Shown: positions 3,100-30,500 of the stretch, piece after piece
Position numbering within the stretch: position 1 is the first letter of the stretch
Layout: every line of letters starts with the position of its first letter
From: Mobula hypostoma
Lineage: Eukaryota
DNA: 64,000 nt
Assembly: GCF_963921235.1 (NCBI RefSeq)
Contig: NC_086097.1
Coordinates: forward strand, 82,834,001 to 82,898,000
Direction of reading: 5' to 3'
The notes under the pieces: model-generated
What the model saw: the letters and a program-made list of their open reading frames with translations, nothing else
Databases searched by the model: none
What the model was told of the DNA's origin: nothing
Program-made: the position numbers and the translations under genes

Positions 3100-3269
3100 A
3101 CACACTTAAAATGATGGAGGAACTCAGCAAGTCAGAAAGCATCTGTGGAGCGGAATATACAATTTATTCCCCTCCATAGATGCTGCCTGACTTGCTGAAT
3201 TCCTCCAGTATTTTGTCTGTGTTGTTCAAGATTTCTAGCATCTGCAGAATCCCTTTTGTTTATGATGAA
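3100..3269. mobile_element. Miniature PLE-derived hairpin insertion (two inverted pLTR 3' ends)
   Basis: Left arm is the reverse complement of the right arm; flanked by direct repeat CTGCTTTCACA (3089-3099 and 3270-3280). Confidence 0.75.
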
Positions 3270-3578: not shown

Positions 3579-6500
3579 GTACGCCTTCAATTTCTTTTCA
3601 GTTGCAGAAGATGGGATTTGAAGTAGCTTTTTTTTTGACTTGAGAAAGAGTGTTCCAAGCCTCAGAAAATAAGTGGAAAGATTATTTATCCTATTTAACT
3701 CTTCTTGAAAGATGCACACAGGTTATTTGTCCTTCCGCATTTGGTGCCTAACTTCTTCCTTTCAATGGATCTTTCCCTTTTTCTTTTGTATTCTTCAGTA
3801 TGCATTAATTCATCACACTTATTGAATAGCAGTACGTTTTTGTCACAGGATATTTACTTTGTCACAGCAGGCAGGCGGTTATCCAAGTATATAAGCAAAA
3901 TCCTGTGGTTGCTGGAAATTTGAGATAAAACAGAAAATTCTACAAGTACTCAGCAGGATAGGTAGCATTTATGGAAAGACCATTAGACAGTGATTGGGAA
4001 GGATAGAGGCACCAGGACTTAGAACAAAGAAACATAGAAACATAGAAACATAGAAAATAGGTGCAGGAGTAGGCCATTCGGCCCTTCGAGCCTGCACCGC
4101 CATTTATTATGATCATGGCTGATCATCCAACTCAGAACCCTGCCCCAGCCTTCCCTCCATACCCCCTGACCCCTGTAGCCACAAGGGCCATATCTAACTC
4201 CCTCTTAAATATAACCAATGAACTGGCCTCAACTGTTTCCTGTGGCAGAGAATTCCACAGATTCACCACTCTCTGTGTGAAGAAGTTTTTCCTAATCTCG
4301 GTCCTAAAAGGCTTCCCCTCTATCCTCAAATTGTGGCCCCTCGTTCTGGACTTCCCCAACATTGGGAACAATCTTCCTGCATCTAGCCTGTCCAATCCCT
4401 TTAGGATCTTATACGTTTCAATCAGATCCCCCCTCAATCTTCTAAATTCCAACGAGTACAAGCCCAGTTCATCCAGTCTTTCTTCATATGAAAGTCCAGC
4501 CATCCCAGGAATCAATCTGGTGAACCTTCTTTGTACTCCCTCTATGGCAAAGATGTCTTTCCTCAGATTAGGGGACCAAAACTGCACACAATACTCCAGG
4601 TGTGGTCTCACCAAGGCCTTGTACAACTGCAGTAGTACCTCCCTGCTCCTGTACTCGAATCCTCTCGCTATAAATGCCAGCATACCATTTGCCTTTTTCA
4701 CCGCCTGCTGTACCTGCATGCCCACTTTCAATGACTGGTGTATAATGACATCCAGGTCTCGTTGCACCTCCCCTTTTCCTAATCGGCCACCATTCAGATA
4801 ATAAAGCAACACACATCAAAGTTGCTGGTGAACGCAGCAGGCCAAGCAGCATCTATAGGAAGAGGCGCAGTCGACGTTTCAGGCCGAGACCCTTCGTCAG
4901 GACTAACTGAAGGAAGAGTGAGTAAGGGATTTGAAAGCTGGAGGGGGAGGGGGAGATGCAAAATGATAGGAGAAGACAGGAGGGGGAGGGATAGAGCCGA
5001 GAGCTGGACAGGTGATAGGCAAAAGGGGATACGAGAGGATCATGGGACAGGAGGTCCGGGAAGAAAGACGGGGGGGGGGGGTTGACCCAGAGGATGGGCA
5101 AGAGGTATATTCAGAGGGACAGAGGGAGAAAAAGGAGAGTGAGAGAAAGAATGTGTGCATAAAAATGAGTAACAGATGGGGTACGAGGGGGAGGTGGGGC
5201 CTAGCGGAAGTTAGAGAAGTCAATGTTCATGCCATCAGGTTGGAGGCTACCCAGACGGAATATAAGGTGTTGTTCCTCCAACCTGAGTGTGGCTTCATCT
5301 TTACAGTAGAGGAGGCCGTGGATAGACATGTCAGAATGGGAATGGGATGTGGAATTAAAATGTGTGGCCACTGGGAGATCCTGCTTTCTCTGGCGGACAG
5401 AGCGTAGATGTTCAGCAAAGCGGTCTCCCAGTCTGCGTCGGGTCTCACCAATATATAAAAGGCCACATCGGGAGCACCGGACGCAGTATATCACCCCAGT
5501 CGACTCACAGGTGAAGTGATGCCTCACCTGGAAGGACTGTTTGGGGCCCTGAATGGTGGTAAGGGAGGAAGTGTAAGGGCATGTGTAGCACTTGTTCCGC
5601 TTACACGATAAGTGCCAGGAGGGAGATCAGTGGGGAGGGATGGGGGGGACGAATGGACAAGGGAGTTGTGTAGGGAGCGATCCCTGCGGAATGCAGAGAG
5701 AGGGGGGGAGGGAAAGATGTGCTTAGTGGTGGGATCCTGTTGGAGGTGGCGGAAGTTACGGAGAATAATATGTTGGACCCGGAGGCTGGTGGGGTGGTAG
5801 GTGAGGACCAGGGGAACCCTATTCCTAGTGGGGTGGTGGGAGGATGGAGTGAGAGCAGATGTACGTGAAATGGGGGAGATGCGTTTAAGAGCAGAGTTGA
5901 TAGTGGAGGAAGGGAAGCCCCTTTCTTTAAAAAATGAAGACATCTCCCTCGTCCTAGAATGAAAAGCCTCATCCTGAGAGCAGATGCGGCGGAGACAGAG
6001 GAATTGCGAGAAGGGGATGGCGTTTTTGCAAGAGACAGGGTGAGAAGAGGAATAGTCCAGATAGCTGTGAGAGTCAGTAGGCTTATAGTAGACATCAGTG
6101 GATAAGCTGTCTCCAGAGACAGAGACAGAAAGATCTAGAAAGGGGAGGGAGGTGTCGGAAATGGACCAGGTAAACTTGAGGGCAGGGTGAAAGTTGGAGG
6201 CAAAGTTAATAAAGTCAACGAGTTCTGCATGCGTGCAGGAAGCAGCGCCAATGCAGTCGTCGATGTAGCGAAGGAAAAGTGGGGGACAGATACCAGAATA
6301 GGCACGGAACATAGATTGTTCCACAAACCCAACAAAAAGGCAGGCATAGCTAGGACCCATACGGGTGCCCATAGCTACACCTTTAGTTTGGAGGAAATGG
6401 GAGGAGCAAAAGGAGAAATTATTAAGAGTAAGGACTAATTCCGCTAGACGGAGCAGAGTGGTGGTAGAGGGGAACTGATTAGGTCTGACCACACTTTGCT

Positions 6501-9500
6501 CTCGGCTCTATCCCTCCCCCTCCTGTCTTCTCCTATCATTTTGCATCTCCCCCTCCCCCTCCAGCTTTCAAATCCCTTACTCACTCTTCCTTCAGTTAGT
6601 CCTGACGAAGGGTCTCGGCCTGAAACGTCGACTGCGCCTCTTCCTATAGATGCTGCTTGGCCTGTTGCGTTCACCAGCAACTTTGATGTGTGTTGCTTGA
6701 ATTTCCAGCATCTGCAGAATTCCTGTTGTTTGCGTTTAAATTCAGATAATAATCTGTTTTCCTATTTTTGCCACCAAAGTGGATAACTTTACATTTATCC
6801 ACATTAAATTGCATCTGCCATGAATTTGCCCACTCACCCAACCTATCCAAGTCACCCTGCATCCTCTTAGCATCCTCCTCACAGCTAACACTGCCGCCCA
6901 GCTTCGTGTCATCCGCAAACTTGGAGATGCTGCATTTAATTCCCTCATCCAAGTCATTAATATATATTGTAAACAACTGGGGTCCCAGCACTGAGCCTTG
7001 CGGTACCCCACTAGTCACCACCTGCCATTCTGAAAAGGTCCCGTTTATTCCCACTCTTTGCTTCCTGTCTGCTAACCAATTCTCCACCCACACCAATACC
7101 TTACCCCCAATACCGTGTGCTTTAAGTTTGCACACTAATCTCCTGTGTGGGACCTTGTCAAAAGCCTTTTGAAAATCCAAATATACCACATCCACTGGTT
7201 CTCCCCTATCCACTCTACTAGTTACATCCTCAAAAAATTCTATGAGATTCGTCAGACATGATTTTCCTTTCACAAATCCATGCTGACTTTGTCCAATCAT
7301 TTCACCGCTTTCCAAATGTGCTGTTATCCCATCCTTGATAACTGACTCCAGCAGTTTCCCCACCACCGACGTTAGGCTAACCGGTCTATAATTCCCCAGT
7401 TTCTCTCTCCCTCCTTTTTTAAAAAGTGGGGTTACATTAGCCACCCTCCAATCCTCAGGAACTAGTCCAGAATCTAACGAGTTTTGAAAAATTATCACTA
7501 ATGCATCCACTATTTCTTGGGCTACTTCCTTAAGCACTCTAGGATGCAGACCATCTGGCCCTGGGGATGTAACAGTGTAACCCAGTCCAGGTCCTTCAGC
7601 TCATGATGTTGTGCCGAATTTTTAACCTACTCCAAAATCAATCTTGCCCTTCCCTCCTTCATAAACCTTTATTTTCTATCATCCACGTGCCTGTCTAAAA
7701 TTCTCTTAAATATCTCTTATATATCTGGCCTCTACCACCTCCCCAGCAGTGTTTTCCAGGCACCTACCAGTCTCTGTCTGAAATAAAACTCCCTTTGACA
7801 TCCAATCATACTTTCCTCCAATCACCTTAAAATTATACTCTCTCACATTAGCCAGTCCCACCAGAGGGAAAAGAAATCATTGGCTCTCCATCCTATCTAG
7901 ACTTCTTGTCAAGTCACCTCTCATCCCCCTTTCCAAAGAGAAAGCCCTAGCTCACTGAACCTATCTTCAGAAGGCATGCCCACTATCCTAGGCAGCATTC
8001 TGGTCAGACTCTATACCTTTTCTGGAGATTCAAATCCTTCCCATAATGAGGTGACCAAACGGAACACAATGCTCCAAATGTGGTCGAACCAGAGTCTGAT
8101 ACGGCTGCAACATTACCTCACAGCTCTTGAACTCAAATTCCTGACCAACAAAGAACAACATACCATATGTCGCCTTAACGACCCGATCAGCTTCCACGGC
8201 AACACTGAGGGATCCATGGATGTAAACCATAAGAGCTTTCTGATCCTCCACCCTGTTAAGAATCCTGTCATTAATCCTGTATTCTGCCTTCAAGTTTTAC
8301 CTCCCAAAGTGAAATACTCCACACATTTTCAGATTGAATTCCATCTGCCACTTCTCAGCCCAGCTCTGCATCCTATCCATGTCCCTTTATAGCCTACAAC
8401 AAACTTCTGCACTATCCACAACACCACTAAATCAGATATTGTATGATTTGATTTGTGGAGGGAAGAGGCAGAGGAAGGACAGGTATTCAGGGAGTGGATA
8501 CAGCTGGTAGGAGATGGAAGGCCAGTCCTTGAGATTGGATGGAGGTGAATATTTTCTTTGCCCTGTAGGCTTCTCATAATAGTACCCATGGTGGGAAGAC
8601 CTTGTGCTCTGGGAACTGGCCAAAGTTAGGTACTTCCTGGGCAACATGATCCAAGTTTTCCCTCCAGTGCTCCATAAAGAGAGTCAATGGGAAAACTACC
8701 TCATTTCAGAAATGACATCAGTGGCACGAGGTGATTAAAACCAGTAAAAGCTGTTTGAATTTTCAGAGTAACTATCAGAAATGGTCATTAGCAAGTACCA
8801 GTATGACACTGCTGAAAAAGGTGGCATTATGTAGTGGAACTCGAAGGCAAATTTGACTTAGCAAACCTGTGACACATAACTTTGGAATAACCATTCTATC
8901 TTGGATCTTCTTGTAAGGAAAGAAGTGCCTAGAGTCCATTATTGACAGGATTGGTTGTACTGGCAATGGAGAGAGTTCTGCATGGGAAACTCAGTAGAGA
9001 CACTGTTGCTGGAAATGCTGTGGTAGCCTAGTCTTGAGCAATGAGATGGTCAGTGGAGATGGCTGATTCACAACTGATGCTTGATGCTTGACCTCAGGGG
9101 TCTCTGCATAGTTGCTGTTTCTGTCCCATGAACTATTTGAGAAACACACTTATCTTCACCCTGATCCAGATGAAGGTTCCCAACCCAAAATATTGAATGT
9201 ACATTAAACTCCACAAATTTTGCCTGAACTACTGAGTTCCTCCATAATATGTCTTAGTCGATAAGATCATAAGATATACGAGCAGAATTAGGCCACCAGG
9301 CCATTGAAACTGCTCCACCATTTCATCATGGCCATTCCATTTTCCCCCTCAGCTCCAATCTCCTCTCTTCTCCCCATATCCTTTCATACTCTGACAAATC
9401 AAGAAACTATCAATCCCTGCCTTAAATTTACCCAATGACTTGACCTCCACAGCTGCCTGTGGCAATGAATTCCACAGATTCACCCTTCTCTGGCAGAAGA

Positions 9501-21500: not shown

Positions 21501-24500
21501 TTCCTATTCGTTATCGATAGAGGAATTCATCCTGTGTACGCTGCTGTGTTCTTTTGATTGACTATAACAAAATCAGCACAGTCCCCTAGTGCAAAGAATA
21601 GACCCTACTCATTGTCTTGCTGCATGAAGTAATGTCATAATCCAACAGTAAATTTCCTGACTTTGTGTTGTCAGGAGAACAAGTTTAGATGTGTCATCTT
21701 CATCTCTTTCTTCATCTTCATATTTCTTGCCTTGATGTTTTGATATAATAATGTCAATGGTTGTACCCTCCAAATCTTTATTTCTATTAAAATTCCACAA
21801 TTTCATTCAAGATGTAACATTCCGGAATTGTAACATTCAAGATGATTGTCAATACCTTCAAGTTCTTCACAGTGTCTAACTTGTTGAAGTAGTAAAATTG
21901 TTTCATTTTCATTACAGGCTGTTTCTGGCATCTCCAAGCCTGAATGCTTGAAACCACAGTGAGCAAAATAGTTCTGAGATGTCTTATGCTAGTTAGAAAC
22001 TGCTTGTCAACATTTTCCTGTCACAATTAAGTGGCATAGTGTCCCAAATATGCAAGGGGAATCCCAAATATTTTCTTGATTAGTTTTTGTTCTTAAAGAG
22101 TTGTCCCAAATCAATGCTGCTCCAATTAACCAAAGGCCCAATTAACTGGAATCAACTGTATAATAATGATTTGGATGAGAATGTAAGTAGCCTGATTAGT
22201 TAGTTTGCAGATGACACCAGAATTGTTGAGCAGTAAAGCAAGTTGTTTGAAGTTACAACTAGGTGTTAATCAACTAAGAAAGTGAACAAGGAATGGTGGA
22301 TGGAATTTAACTCAGACAAGGGTGAAATGATGCATTTTGAGATGTTAAATCAGGGCAGAACATATGCAGTAAATGTTGCATTCTCTGGAGAATGTTGGTG
22401 AACAGAGAAACCTTGGAGTACATGCATAGCTGCCTGAACATTGCAGTAGGATAGCGAAGAAAGCATATGGTATGCTTAGGAAGAGGTATAGTTGACTGTA
22501 CCTCTTCCTATAGATGCTGCCTGGCCTGCTGCATTCACCAGCATTTTTTGTGTGTGTTGCTTGAATTTCCAGCATCTGCAGATTTCCTCGTATATGGTAT
22601 GCTTGCCTTCATCAACTGAGGCACAGAGTATAAGAGTTGGGGTATTATTTTACAGTAGTACAAAATTTTTGATAGGCCATACTTGGAGCATTGTGTGCAG
22701 TTCTGGTTGCCGTACTACAGCAAGCATGTGATTACGGAAATGATTCATAATGATGGGGCCTTGGTTGGCAGGCTGGGTCCATTTTCCCAGGAGCAAGGAG
22801 GCTGGGCAGTGAAATAACAGAAGTATATAAGATTATGAGAGCCATAGAATGGGTAGATAACTAGGGTCTTTATTTCCCAAGCTAGTGATATCTAAACCAG
22901 GGGACTTGGCTGGAAGGTGGGAGGGAGAAGATTTAATAGAAATCTATGGAGTAAATTTTTTACACAGAGTCATCTACATCTGGAATGGAGGTGATGGAGG
23001 CTGCAACAATTACAATGTTTAAGAGGCATCTGGACAGGTATTGAAAGACAAAGGCATTAAGACATACCAAATTATTATAGGCTCGTGGAATTACTATAGA
23101 TAGACATGATGATCTGCATAGATTCAGTGGGTCAAAGGGCCTTGTTACTATGCCACACAGATTTACAGCCCTGTGAATCTAATGCCACTGAACCAAGAAT
23201 AAAGCTCTTTGAAATCAAAAATAAAATAGTCAGGAGAAGATGGTGGCGCGATGCAGCTCACAGTGGCCACTCCAGTGGTGACGTCTGTTATTTGTCAAGT
23301 AGGGTGCCATGCACAATCCTGATTTGATGGAGACGGACGTGAGAGCATGGAGGAACATCTGGTGAAACTTCTGAAATGCCTGCTTCGCTGCTGCTGCTAC
23401 TGTGTGGTCCAGAATCTCTGGAGGAGAAGGCCTCGAGTCCTCGGCTTTGCTTGTTGCTCGGCGGTCAGGTCGGGGTCGAAGCACTCGGCAGAGGATGTTG
23501 CTCGGAGAGGCTGTGTCAGAGGGGCTGGTCGGAGGCTCAAGGTTTTCAGACAGACTCAGAGTCTGCTGCGGTCGGGTGCTTCCAATGGTGCTGCATCGGC
23601 GAGTTGGCGGCACTTGGAGGTTCATGGCAGGGAGAGTTTCTCCTTTCTGCCGCCTGCATGGGATGATGAGTCTATCGGGTTTTTGAGACTTTTATTTACC
23701 GTGCCCATGGTCTGCTCTTTATCAAATTATGGTATTGCTTTGCACTGCTGTAACGATATGTTATAATTATGTGGTTTTGTCAGCTTTAGTCTTGGTTTGT
23801 GCTGTGTTTTCTTGTGATATCATTCTGGAGGAACGTTGTATCATTTTTTAATGCATGCATTTCTAAATGACAATAAATGAGGACTGAGTGTCCTCATGAT
23901 CTAGAAACAATTACTGGAAATATTTGGAAGGTCTGCCAACATTTGTGGAGTGAAATAGGTAATGTTTCATGTTCATACATGTTTGTCATCTCATCAAAGT
24001 TTTCTGGTTCTTCCTAAACCGTGTGTAAAATGCAACCCAGCTGATTAGAACATCATTCAGCAATGATCATTATATTTGTACTAATGTTGTCATAGACTGT
24101 TCAATCATCTCTATCTGCTTATCTTTCTGAAGCCATGTCATTTAGCAAACATGCATTCAACACCCTACTCCATTGATGGACATGAAACCATTCAATATTC
24201 TTGCCAATGGTTCATGCTGTGAGGTAGGAAGAAGAAAATCACAGTCCTTTTCGCCCTTGAATCCAATTAATACAGTTTAATTAAGCAATTAAATTAAATC
24301 TGATGTCTAGAGTAGGCAGTGTGATCATCTCTGCATGAGTCAAACTAGAATATATTCTTTGAAAAAAAGTTTAAGCAATTGACATACTAATTTGACAAAT
24401 TGGGTGGTAGGGTGGAGATGCATTTCTACTAAAGGAGGTGTAAGGTGTTCCTTCCCCCCAATAGCCTGCAGGTCATCCTTGGGCAAGGTGTGGTACCTGC

Positions 24501-27500: not shown

Positions 27501-30500
27501 TATATTCTCCTGTCCCTTATAAATCTCCAACCTGGCTACCTTATAACTCTCAGGAGCCCTGAGAGCTCTTTGCTTCTTAAACCTTAAGTATACTTCCTTC
27601 TTCTGCTTGACTAGATGTTCCACATCTCTTGTCAACCATGATTCCTTCATCCTACCATCTTTTCCCTGTCATAATGGAACAAAAATATCCAGAACCCTAT
27701 ATTACCTATACTGTCAGCTCTTATCCCAGTCCAGGGCTATGTTGAATGTTAAGGAATTGCTTCTGAAATGCCCACACAACAAGGAAGAATTTGACTGCCC
27801 CTGAATTATATTTGACTATTAATCTAATAGGAGGCAGGTTGCCTTAGAAGTGAATTCAAAGCACTTTTCATTAGACATATAGAGTAACACACTCAAAATG
27901 CTGAAGGAACTCAGCAGGGGTCAGGCAGCGTCTGTGGAGTAGAATAAAGAGTCAACATTTCAGGCTGGGATCTGCTGAATTCCTCCAGAATTTTGTGTGT
28001 GATGCTCTGGATTTACAATATCTGCAGGATTGCTTGTATTTATCATAACACATTTTTTTTTGTGCTGTACCATTATCAGGAAGGAAAGCAGCTGATGGAT
28101 GAGAAGCCAGGTTTTAAACCAGTTGTCTCGGAGAAACTGAAGGAACTGCATGATCAGTGGGAAATCCTGGATTCCACCACTAAAGACAAGGCTGACCGGC
28201 TGTTCCAAGCAAACCGATCAGAGCTTTTCTCACAGGGCTGTGAAGACCTGAACAAGTGGATGGATGACCTGGAGTCACAGCTACATTCTGAAGACTTTGG
28301 AAAGGACTTGACCAGTGTCAATATCCTGCTGAAAAAGTTACAGGTTATGACTCTATTTACTATTTCTCTCTCTACACGGATGGCTCCTGACATGCATTTC
28401 TTGTTCGTATGTAAACTAGTTTAACTGGCTAGTTCAACTAGGTTCCACTGGATGTTTTGTAGAAACATTTGAAATTAATGACAATTCTGCAACTTATGAG
28501 TAACTACCTCCCTGTAGCTCCTATCAATCATCTCCTCATTCTCCCATATGAGCCAAAGGTCTCAGATTGCAGCTCCAGTTTCTTAATATGGTCTCTAAGA
28601 AGCTGTAGCTCGATGCATTTAGTGCAGATGTTGATATCAGGGAGATAGTCTTCCCATAACTCACACAATGAACATATCACTAACTCTGTACCCACTCTCT
28701 GCCCACTAGCTAAATACTGATAGACAAAGAAAGACAACTTATTAGAAACTAATATAGAACCTCCGACTGTTTTTACCGAAGCCTGTAGAGCCACACCACA
28801 TACACGTCCCCTCTTTTTATTGGTGCAAATAAAACTCACTCCTGACAAGACTTGTCTTTTCAAATGGGTGCTGCTTCACAATGATGACTCTCTCTCACTT
28901 GCTACTTCAAACAGCACCCACTAGTGGACAAATTGTGCACACAATCAAAAATACTGTGAAGATGATCGTAGTTACGCAATGGAGTTATACTTAAGTAGAA
29001 TAATTATTTTTCAAGCCCCTCTCAGGTGTTTATGTTTACTTAATATTATTTATAATTGAGATTCATTGGTACATAATCAGAGTCCTTATTTGCTATGGCA
29101 CTCATTATGGGAACTCCAGCAGTATGAATTTGCTGAGTGCATATTGAGTTGATGTATGTCTATGATCCGCTGCGTTGTTTCATAACACTTGGATATTAGA
29201 TAGTGTCTTACTCAAATAAGAACAATTTACTATAACATAAAAATATTCTCTCTTGATTTTGCTCACCTGTATTTAGAGAAGTATCTCAGGAATTGATAGT
29301 CATGAACTGCTGAATTAAACACTACTTCGCCTTTTGTTGGTGATCACGCTAATTTTTCAATTATGTAACATGTCTATTATTATATTTAAGAATGATTCAG
29401 AAACATTATTTTCAAAGTAATTTTGTGGCTCTCAAATCGTCTTCTCTGAAAGTCCTTCAGCTCTATCTGTTGCTCTTGTCTTTTTGCCAGTTTTTAAAAT
29501 TTCATATCAAATTATGGAACAGATGATGACTTTCACATAAAAACATCAGAATATGGGATGTGATAAAACCTGATTTGTCATCAAGCAGACATGTGAGATG
29601 ATATCTAACCATTGGCCAGCAGTCCTGGTCTTATTTCCCTTTTTGTCAGTTAAATGGATTGTTTTGGTTGTGAACAGATGACAGAAAATCAAGTGGAAGT
29701 GCGACAGAAAGAGGTGGAGGATCTTCTAAGTCAGGCCACAATTCTCTCTCAAGAAAGACAATTGGAGACTGATGGGAAGGAAAAGAAAATAGAGAAGAGA
29801 TTCTTACAGCTGATGAGCCCACTGCAGGAACGGCGTCAAAGTCTTCTCTCATCAAAGAAGAGCTTTCAGTTTTATCGGGATCTGGAAGATGAATCTGTAA
29901 GAAGTTACAGTAATTTTTTTCACAGATTAACTAAAGTCATGAATTGCACAGATATTAATTAAAGTAATTTTTGAATATTTATACCTTCACATGTTCTCTC
30001 TTAGCTTTGGGTGAAAGAACGGATGCCCTTAGCAACGAGCACAGACCATGGCCAGAATTTGCAGGCAGTGCAGCTCCTAATGAAAAAGAATAAGGTAGGT
30101 CATGTTAATTGAAAGCTTCCATCAAGCATTTCAATGAAGTTTTGTACATGGAATATTGAACTCAAAGAATAACCTTTATTTGTCTGTTGCTTTTAAAATG
30201 ATAATTTTGATTAACTTATGTTTGACTAGAAGTTTAGGCACTGGACTGGCTAGAGCTAAGGTCTACCCTGTTTTATTTCATCATTGTGTGTGAGTTGTTA
30301 CATATCACAAATTACCTCAATATAGAGTCTGATATCCCACTACTGCTGTTAAATCATCATGTAAAGGACTTTGAAACAGTATGGTTTTCATCATAATTCC
30401 TTGATAGTTATAATTGTTGTAGGGGAATTGAGGCAGAGAATTAAGTGATAGAAAGTCTTTTCCTTTATGATCATACCATAACACTCATTCCTGTTGATTA

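Follow-up and report, generated by a model that had tools for sequence, protein, structure and literature searches.

The insertion and its parent family

The window, that is, the whole 64,000-nt stretch of Mobula hypostoma DNA analysed here (contig NC_086097.1, positions 82,834,001 to 82,898,000), contains a 114-bp insertion at 22478-22591 flanked by 13-bp TSDs. The two TSD copies, ATATGGTATGCTT at 22465-22477 and 22592-22604, are identical. Positions in the pLTR are numbered from the predicted GUC cut, with +1 for the first base 3' of it (the initial G of GACTG) and 0, -1 and -2 for the bases upstream. The following features were identified.

22465..22477, no strand: left TSD, 13 bp, identical to the right copy; single copy in the empty-site paralogues
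22478..22493, minus strand: short inverted arm, pLTR +1..+16 after the predicted cut, with two C>T changes
22491..22496, no strand: junction hexamer, GTCGAC in intact copies, with a CpG transition here; 6-nt sense/antisense microhomology spanning the predicted cut
22494..22591, plus strand: long arm, pLTR 3' end from +1 (predicted cut) to about +98
22560..22591, plus strand: one-sided tail, about +67..+98, on the long arm only
22592..22604, no strand: right TSD, 13 bp, identical to the left copy; single copy in the empty-site paralogues
6598..6633, plus strand: intact minimal hammerhead motif of the insertion's family (helix I 5' strand AGTC, CTGACGA, helix II, GAAAC, GTC, predicted cut, GACT)
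4793..6752, no strand: 1.9-kb two-armed insertion of the same family, flanked by repeated TTCAGATAATAA

The insert starts with a 16+16 palindrome, in which the first 16 nt repeat the following 16 in reverse complement except for two transitions. Both mismatches are C>T on the plus strand, and one of them falls in the CpG of GTCGAC. Fourteen matches of 16 at one given place have a chance probability of 2.6e-7, and the hairpin fold of the insert (z = -6.2) was equalled by none of 200 shuffles. The right arm begins with GACTG, whose first base follows GTC in three intact motifs of the window, and the final T of the left TSD could also be pLTR +17 of the short arm. The long arm is 89-92% identical to the intact window copies; the insertion is thus moderately old, at about 10% divergence. 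Since the centre is itself the palindrome GTCGAC, the breakpoint can be placed only within -2..+3 around the cut. An earlier note had described the insert, its TSDs and the imperfect palindrome, and both coordinates and sequence were verified; the course of the right arm given there, from GACTG after GUC to the 3' tail of a Penelope-like element (PLE), agrees with the intact motifs. The TSD is genuine: three paralogues of the host repeat (presumably an old CR1-type LINE) among 388 loci align across the modelled empty site, and each has one copy of the 13-mer.

The intact CTGACGA...GAAACGTC motifs are found at 124 (minus strand), 4900 (minus) and 6602 (plus). The sequence of the intact pLTRs contains the core boxes, the GUC triplet, the ACGT palindrome and the helix I complement, a layout that on sequence grounds fits the minimal hammerhead as described in the available part of PMC4209133. 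An Rfam scan of the window gave no matches at E up to 1, and the candidate hammerhead is a motif match only. Its minimum free energy fold is unremarkable (z = 0.6) and does not form the hammerhead shape. The 114-bp insert holds the last four bases of the motif, the helix I 3' strand; the rest of the hammerhead is absent from it.

A GIY-YIG domain (PF01541, E = 3.3e-5, 24.5 bits against a cut-off of 22.6) lies just upstream of the pLTR. A YIDD motif was spotted by eye in the reverse transcriptase (RT) piece, which had no matches in Pfam or PDB. The minus strand of the insertion at 4793..6752 has remnants of RT and GIY-YIG coding sequence, both broken.

In this 1.9-kb insertion the arm without the tail is the longer one; it measures about 1.56 kb and reaches into the coding sequence, against about 240 bp for the tailed arm. 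Comparison of 1-2992 with 4031-7392 showed a further copy where the window begins, 97-99% identical to 4804-6361. Its host flanks are repeated in inverted order (1584-2237 against 6740-7392, and 2225-2992 against 4031-4804), so that the element lies in a locally rearranged or duplicated region. At about 3100-3260 and 27887-28027 there are older fold-backs with eroded centres, which belong to a related pLTR subfamily (about 77-80% identity).

Genomic recurrence and 5' ends of the arms

Exact GTCGAC fold-backs were found in 94 genomic copies (14+14 pattern), with none for the control. In all 15 fold-back loci inspected the arms are unequal, one long and the other short, and the TSD is 11-17 bp; the copy at 22478..22591 has the shortest short arm among them (17 nt against 25-77). 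The TSD mode of the family is 13-14 bp, and 99 of 105 sister loci have TSDs of 11-19 bp. The PLE origin and the position of the fold-back axis at the predicted cut, both proposed earlier, were correct, and the same junction is present in the 94 copies. A chance palindrome or an assembly artefact is ruled out by these recurrences, the chance figure of 2.6e-7 and the empty-site paralogues.

Inverted arm pairs with a gap of at most 180 gave 14,017 matches genome-wide (matches, not deduplicated loci). Breakpoints were parsed in the first 90 of 100 matches listed, all within the first 19 Mb of one contig (C1). The short arms of these insertions end at +50..+74, and the long arms reach the reference end at about +95/+96 or beyond, two features that the search pattern itself demanded. 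Only one of the 90 is an exact GTCGAC fold-back, so that this class makes up about 1% of short inverted insertions.

The 5' ends of the parsed arms lie mainly upstream of the predicted cut. Of 180 ends, 105 are at -39..-16, with the peak at -35..-26; 24 are at -15..-3, 14 at -2..+1 and 11 at +2..+20. In total, 132 ends are at or 5' of -3, and bases at or upstream of -3 are kept on at least one arm by 82 of the 90 insertions and on both arms by 50. The dominant peak at the cut that is expected for retrocopies of a cleavage product was not observed. Because the ends pile up 5' of the cut and 82/90 insertions retain bases from that side, most templates were uncleaved.

The upstream edge of the pile does not come from the gap limit: 61 ends were free to reach -58, and only 2 of them lie beyond -40. 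Bystander arms, unselected by any search (n = 52), have 18 ends at -39..-16, none at -59..-40 and 19 upstream of -59; of the rest, 2 are at -15..-3, 3 at -2..+3 and 8 at +4..+20. Since both the parsed and the bystander ends cluster at -39..-16 with a sharp upstream edge, the main stop is placed directly 5' of the ribozyme. The pile is likely to mark the front end of the RNA. At -37..-32 the pLTR contains TCAGTT, which we take to be initiator-like. As for the extra G that copying opposite a cap would leave, a G precedes the end in 24 of 79 cases at -38..-29 and in 22 of 44 at -28..-24, counts in which many of the bases belong to the partner arm and which include selected loci. Splicing of a short exon to an acceptor at -34/-30 was weighed as an explanation and rejected, as the bases inserted at these junctions have no common sequence.

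Ends between -16 and +13 gave 2,619 matches, with no dominant position seen by eye among the 100 listed. The breakpoint histogram suggested in the earlier note, run in part, thus told two ways: the peak lies at -35..-26 and not at the cut, and a smaller spike, 2.4-2.7-fold over neighbouring positions, occurs at +1.

Palindromes and microhomology at the junctions

Among the 90 parsed junctions, 40 have a microhomology of 1-6 nt, four have longer overlaps, 44 contain inserted bases and two are blunt. All sense/antisense microhomologies of at least 4 nt were enumerated. GTCGAC is the longest one in -60..+60, tied in one subfamily with CTATAG. The helix I pairing brings together -31..-28 and +1..+4, and the GTC triplet is identical to the helix I 5' strand. 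The hammerhead region is thus rich in microhomology, and junctions are expected to gather at the cut even without cleavage.

Symmetric fold-backs were also found at the 4-bp palindromes GGCC at -12 (55 loci; 94 rows, that is 39 pairs and 16 singles) and ACGT at -4 (28 loci). These require an uncleaved template on both arms. The 6-bp palindrome CTATAG at +15, 17 nt downstream, gave only seven fold-backs, or about 17 when scaled for the 41% of arms with the variant. This low count fits the downstream fall in end density, and it is also the best point for cleavage. The comparison of palindromes is rough because the patterns differ slightly in length and degeneracy. The earlier note would have taken equal peaks at unrelated 6-bp palindromes as evidence against cleavage. 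Here the answer is divided: the 4-bp sites 5' of the cut reach 55 and 28 fold-backs, compared with 94 at GTCGAC, and CTATAG has 7.

An asymmetric junction at the 4-nt CGTC (-25 with -3, the arm starting at -3) is present in 110 copies, which may alternatively be taken for blunt joins at +1. The largest class of ends at +1 (GACT, about 100 copies) equals this CGTC class in size. A product model puts the end density at +1 at 3.5-5.0, compared with 5.3 at -4; for the 6-nt GTCGAC a weight just 3.4-fold that of 4 nt suffices, a weight that was fitted and not independently measured.

Ends at the predicted cleavage site

Arms following five non-consensus bases were counted base by base in the whole genome: 131 at -2, 345 at +1, 142 at +2 and 130 at +3. 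The patterns leave out the symmetric GTCGAC fold-back. The counts at +2 and +3 include intact copies with small indels, and the true contrast at +1 is therefore somewhat larger.

Nearly half of the listed +1 ends fall into two classes formed by the ribozyme's own self-complementary motifs. In the first, the antisense arm extends to -31 and is joined through the 4-nt microhomology GACT, which represents the two strands of helix I (28-30 of 100 listed, tallied by eye; about 100 copies). In the second, two-step class, the antisense arm extends to -25 and is followed by CT and GACTG (15-18 of 100 listed; seven of eight fetched loci confirmed). The latter is about twice as frequent as its analogue at +3, with the lists read by eye, and this excess is only partly explained.

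In the two-step junctions (L084, L102, L351-L358) the imperfect palindrome -30..-23 has its two middle bases inverted, and the ribozyme core is left out. By scaling, this class numbers about 55 copies, and like skips occur at +3 and -2. Three independent-looking copies (L080-L082) have the same junction with an extra A between the arm end at -30 and the start at +1. In another locus (L008) a GTCGAC fold-back is followed by two short tandem restarts of -7..+25 and then by the full tail; the restarts suggest repeated template jumps.

Ends joined directly to host DNA were tallied by reading the top 30 loci per list and by fetching those matches in rows 31-100 that five bases did not suffice to assign (37 for +1, 30 for +3 and 45 for -2); at +2 the tally covers the first 30 loci only. 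Among the matches listed there were 13/100 such ends at +1, 13/100 at +3, 23/100 at -2 and 9/30 at +2. Scaled, this gives 45 at +1, 17 at +3, 30 at -2 and 43 at +2, few of them with a confirmed TSD. The excess at +1 over the mean of the others is 1.5-fold (interval 0.8-2.6).

Origin of the two arms

The 114-bp insertion is a minimal two-armed insertion of an endonuclease-bearing (EN+) Penelope-like element, and its arms, cDNA made from uncleaved RNA, were probably joined by annealing at the self-complementary GTCGAC. The TSD, the head-to-head pLTR ends, the one-sided tail and the thousands of sister copies with scattered, microhomology-rich junctions are all observed. The features of EN+ PLE insertions are present: the family encodes an RT followed by a C-terminal GIY-YIG domain, and the insertion has an inverted 5'-truncated pLTR beside a direct pLTR end, a one-sided tail and a TSD. 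The earlier note had itself named the GTCGAC palindrome, acting without cleavage, as the alternative to its main claim, and this alternative fits the data better.

The candidate scheme is as follows. The endonuclease would cut both strands about 13-14 nt apart, and each 3' end would prime one cDNA, one from about +100 and the other from an inner site. The cDNAs would mostly extend to the front end of the RNA, 25-38 nt upstream of the cut, and their 3' ends would be joined at any short complementarity. In the copy at 22478..22591, a single cDNA might equally well have snapped back on GTCGAC and copied 16 nt of itself, with the same product.

The two arms agree at the variable site +18 in 71 of 81 insertions, against an expected fraction of 0.42 if they were independent. 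As subfamily variants are mostly shared, both arms usually come from one source element. On the other hand, the arms differ at +18 in 10 of 81 insertions, compared with 234 of 6,071 (3.9%) elsewhere (p = 0.001), and in 47 of 90 the short arm outreaches the long arm on the upstream side by more than 6 nt. Both observations indicate that two separately primed cDNAs are common. Pure snap-back as the general route is excluded for at least those 47 of 90, where the short arm reaches further upstream. The two-cDNA route matches the Anolis element, for which the available part of PMC11167929 describes cutting and extension of both strands and two inner start sites.

Several observations do not sit easily with joining by microhomology. 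The ends at +1 are too numerous (345 against 130-142 nearby), the two-step class is about twice its +3 analogue, and the 6-nt CTATAG gives only 7 loci. In addition, 14 of 180 parsed ends fall at -2..+1, compared with 24 over the 13 nt upstream and 11 over the 19 nt downstream, and 8 of 52 bystander ends are at +4..+20.

One possibility is that hammerhead self-cleavage supplied the template in the form of its 3' product. The RT would have run off at +1, and the end would have been joined head to head, either directly or following a short jump to the 5' fragment while this was still paired. This was the main inference of the earlier note, which saw in the insertion a fossil of cleavage in vivo; the data do not demonstrate it, and we consider such an origin unlikely. 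The Anolis PLE ribozyme cuts in vitro with the help of the protein (PMC11167929, available part), but metazoan minimal hammerheads cut poorly in vitro, as stated in the accessible text of PMC4209133. The position of the fold-back axis exactly on the predicted cut speaks for cleavage, as do the 94 GTCGAC copies, more than for each of the three other palindromes tested, and the fact that three of the commonest counted classes (94, about 100 and 110) have GACTG directly after the joint. However, run-off at +1 on both sides would give ends without common microhomology, and blunt joining was seen in only 2 of 90 junctions; moreover, most insertions retain the ribozyme core. The spike at +1 (345 against 130-142) also points to cleavage, but the end density has no step up 3' of the cut (131 at -2, 142 at +2, 130 at +3). 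The host-joined ends, too, are most numerous at +1 (45 against 30, 43 and 17), a 1.5-fold excess with an interval of 0.8-2.6. It is conceivable, if doubtful, that a minority of the RNAs was cut by the hammerhead in the germ line and is recorded as the single-base spike at +1, including jumps onto the 5' fragment.

A later collapse, in which slippage or cruciform resolution at the GTCGAC of both arms removed the centre of an inverted insertion that had integrated at greater length, is improbable. Since every longer two-armed copy has GTCGAC on both arms, a deletion between them would yield exactly the observed product; long palindromes are unstable, and the moderate age of the copy (about 10% from the intact window copies) would allow it. 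On the other side, thousands of longer near-perfect palindromic copies keep their centres, many of the 94 GTCGAC centres are unmutated, and the unusually short 16-nt arm is left unexplained.

Implications

Cleavage in vivo by the minimal hammerheads of animal PLEs is a question raised in PMC4209133, PMC11167929 and PMC8557442, as far as their available parts go. More than ten thousand short two-armed copies in one genome make a census of breakpoints possible. According to this census, most templates were uncleaved and started just upstream of the ribozyme, and any cleavage signal is limited to a few percent of short insertions. Since the ribozyme's own pairing places microhomologies at the cut, a fold-back centred on it is weak evidence of cleavage. 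The insertion is real, recurrent and ordinary, with the known inverted-pLTR layout of PLEs and, probably, joining by microhomology. The spike at +1 and the two-step class are the part most worthy of a census. If a minority of RNAs was indeed cut in the germ line, they would be genomic evidence for the action of animal PLE hammerheads in vivo; if the excess at +1 survives a full model, it would be the first genomic trace of cleavage known to us.

Comparison with known systems

In twin priming of L1, as here, two cDNAs primed on the target strands are joined by a short microhomology and flanked by a TSD. Unlike here, the arms of L1 are adjacent parts of one RNA. The palindrome is present here, and not in L1, because both arms repeat the same pLTR end.

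The candidate hammerhead resembles the minimal type I hammerheads of metazoan PLEs in having the CUGANGA and GAAA boxes and no real helix III, as well as dimer-compatible palindromic bases after GAAA and a short helix I (PMC4209133, available part). Unlike the hammerheads in that part of the text, the 114-bp insert retains nothing but the helix I 3' strand, four bases long. A search of the titles and the openings of abstracts in the literature, supplements aside, gave no report that places PLE breakpoints at the hammerhead cut; Fig. S2 of PMC11167929 may be relevant here. A 2026 retrozyme preprint, in its available part, has no bearing on breakpoints.

The family is similar to the Poseidon element of Anolis carolinensis (PAc) in the order of RT and GIY-YIG and in the minimal hammerhead within the pLTR, and also in the two 3' end points that define the tail and in that both target strands are cut and extended (PMC11167929, available part). 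According to the same text, the PAc protein cuts and extends both strands and starts at two inner sites. Ribozyme mutants of PAc insert normally, cleavage being dispensable in vitro, and RNA-seq gave no reads ending at the ribozyme site. Unlike the present analysis, the available part of that paper contains no tally of genomic 5' breakpoints relative to the cut.

The general layout of EN+ PLEs, including the tail, is summarized in the available part of PMC8557442. The closest parallels are Pen2, Pen2a and Pen3a of Adineta vaga, described in the accessible text of PMC3846280 as having an inverted 5'-truncated pLTR, a palindromic junction, a one-sided tail of 30-40 bp and a TSD. The insertion shares with them the head-to-head pLTR ends, the palindrome at the junction, the tail on one arm, the TSD and the microhomology at the 5' junction. 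In that text the palindromes are ascribed to self-priming on an antisense template, whereas here the differences between the arms suggest that in many copies two cDNAs were primed separately. Compared with the Adineta elements as described there, the entire insertion is only 114 bp, without coding sequence and with a short arm of 16 nt, and the axis of its palindrome lies on the predicted ribozyme cut.
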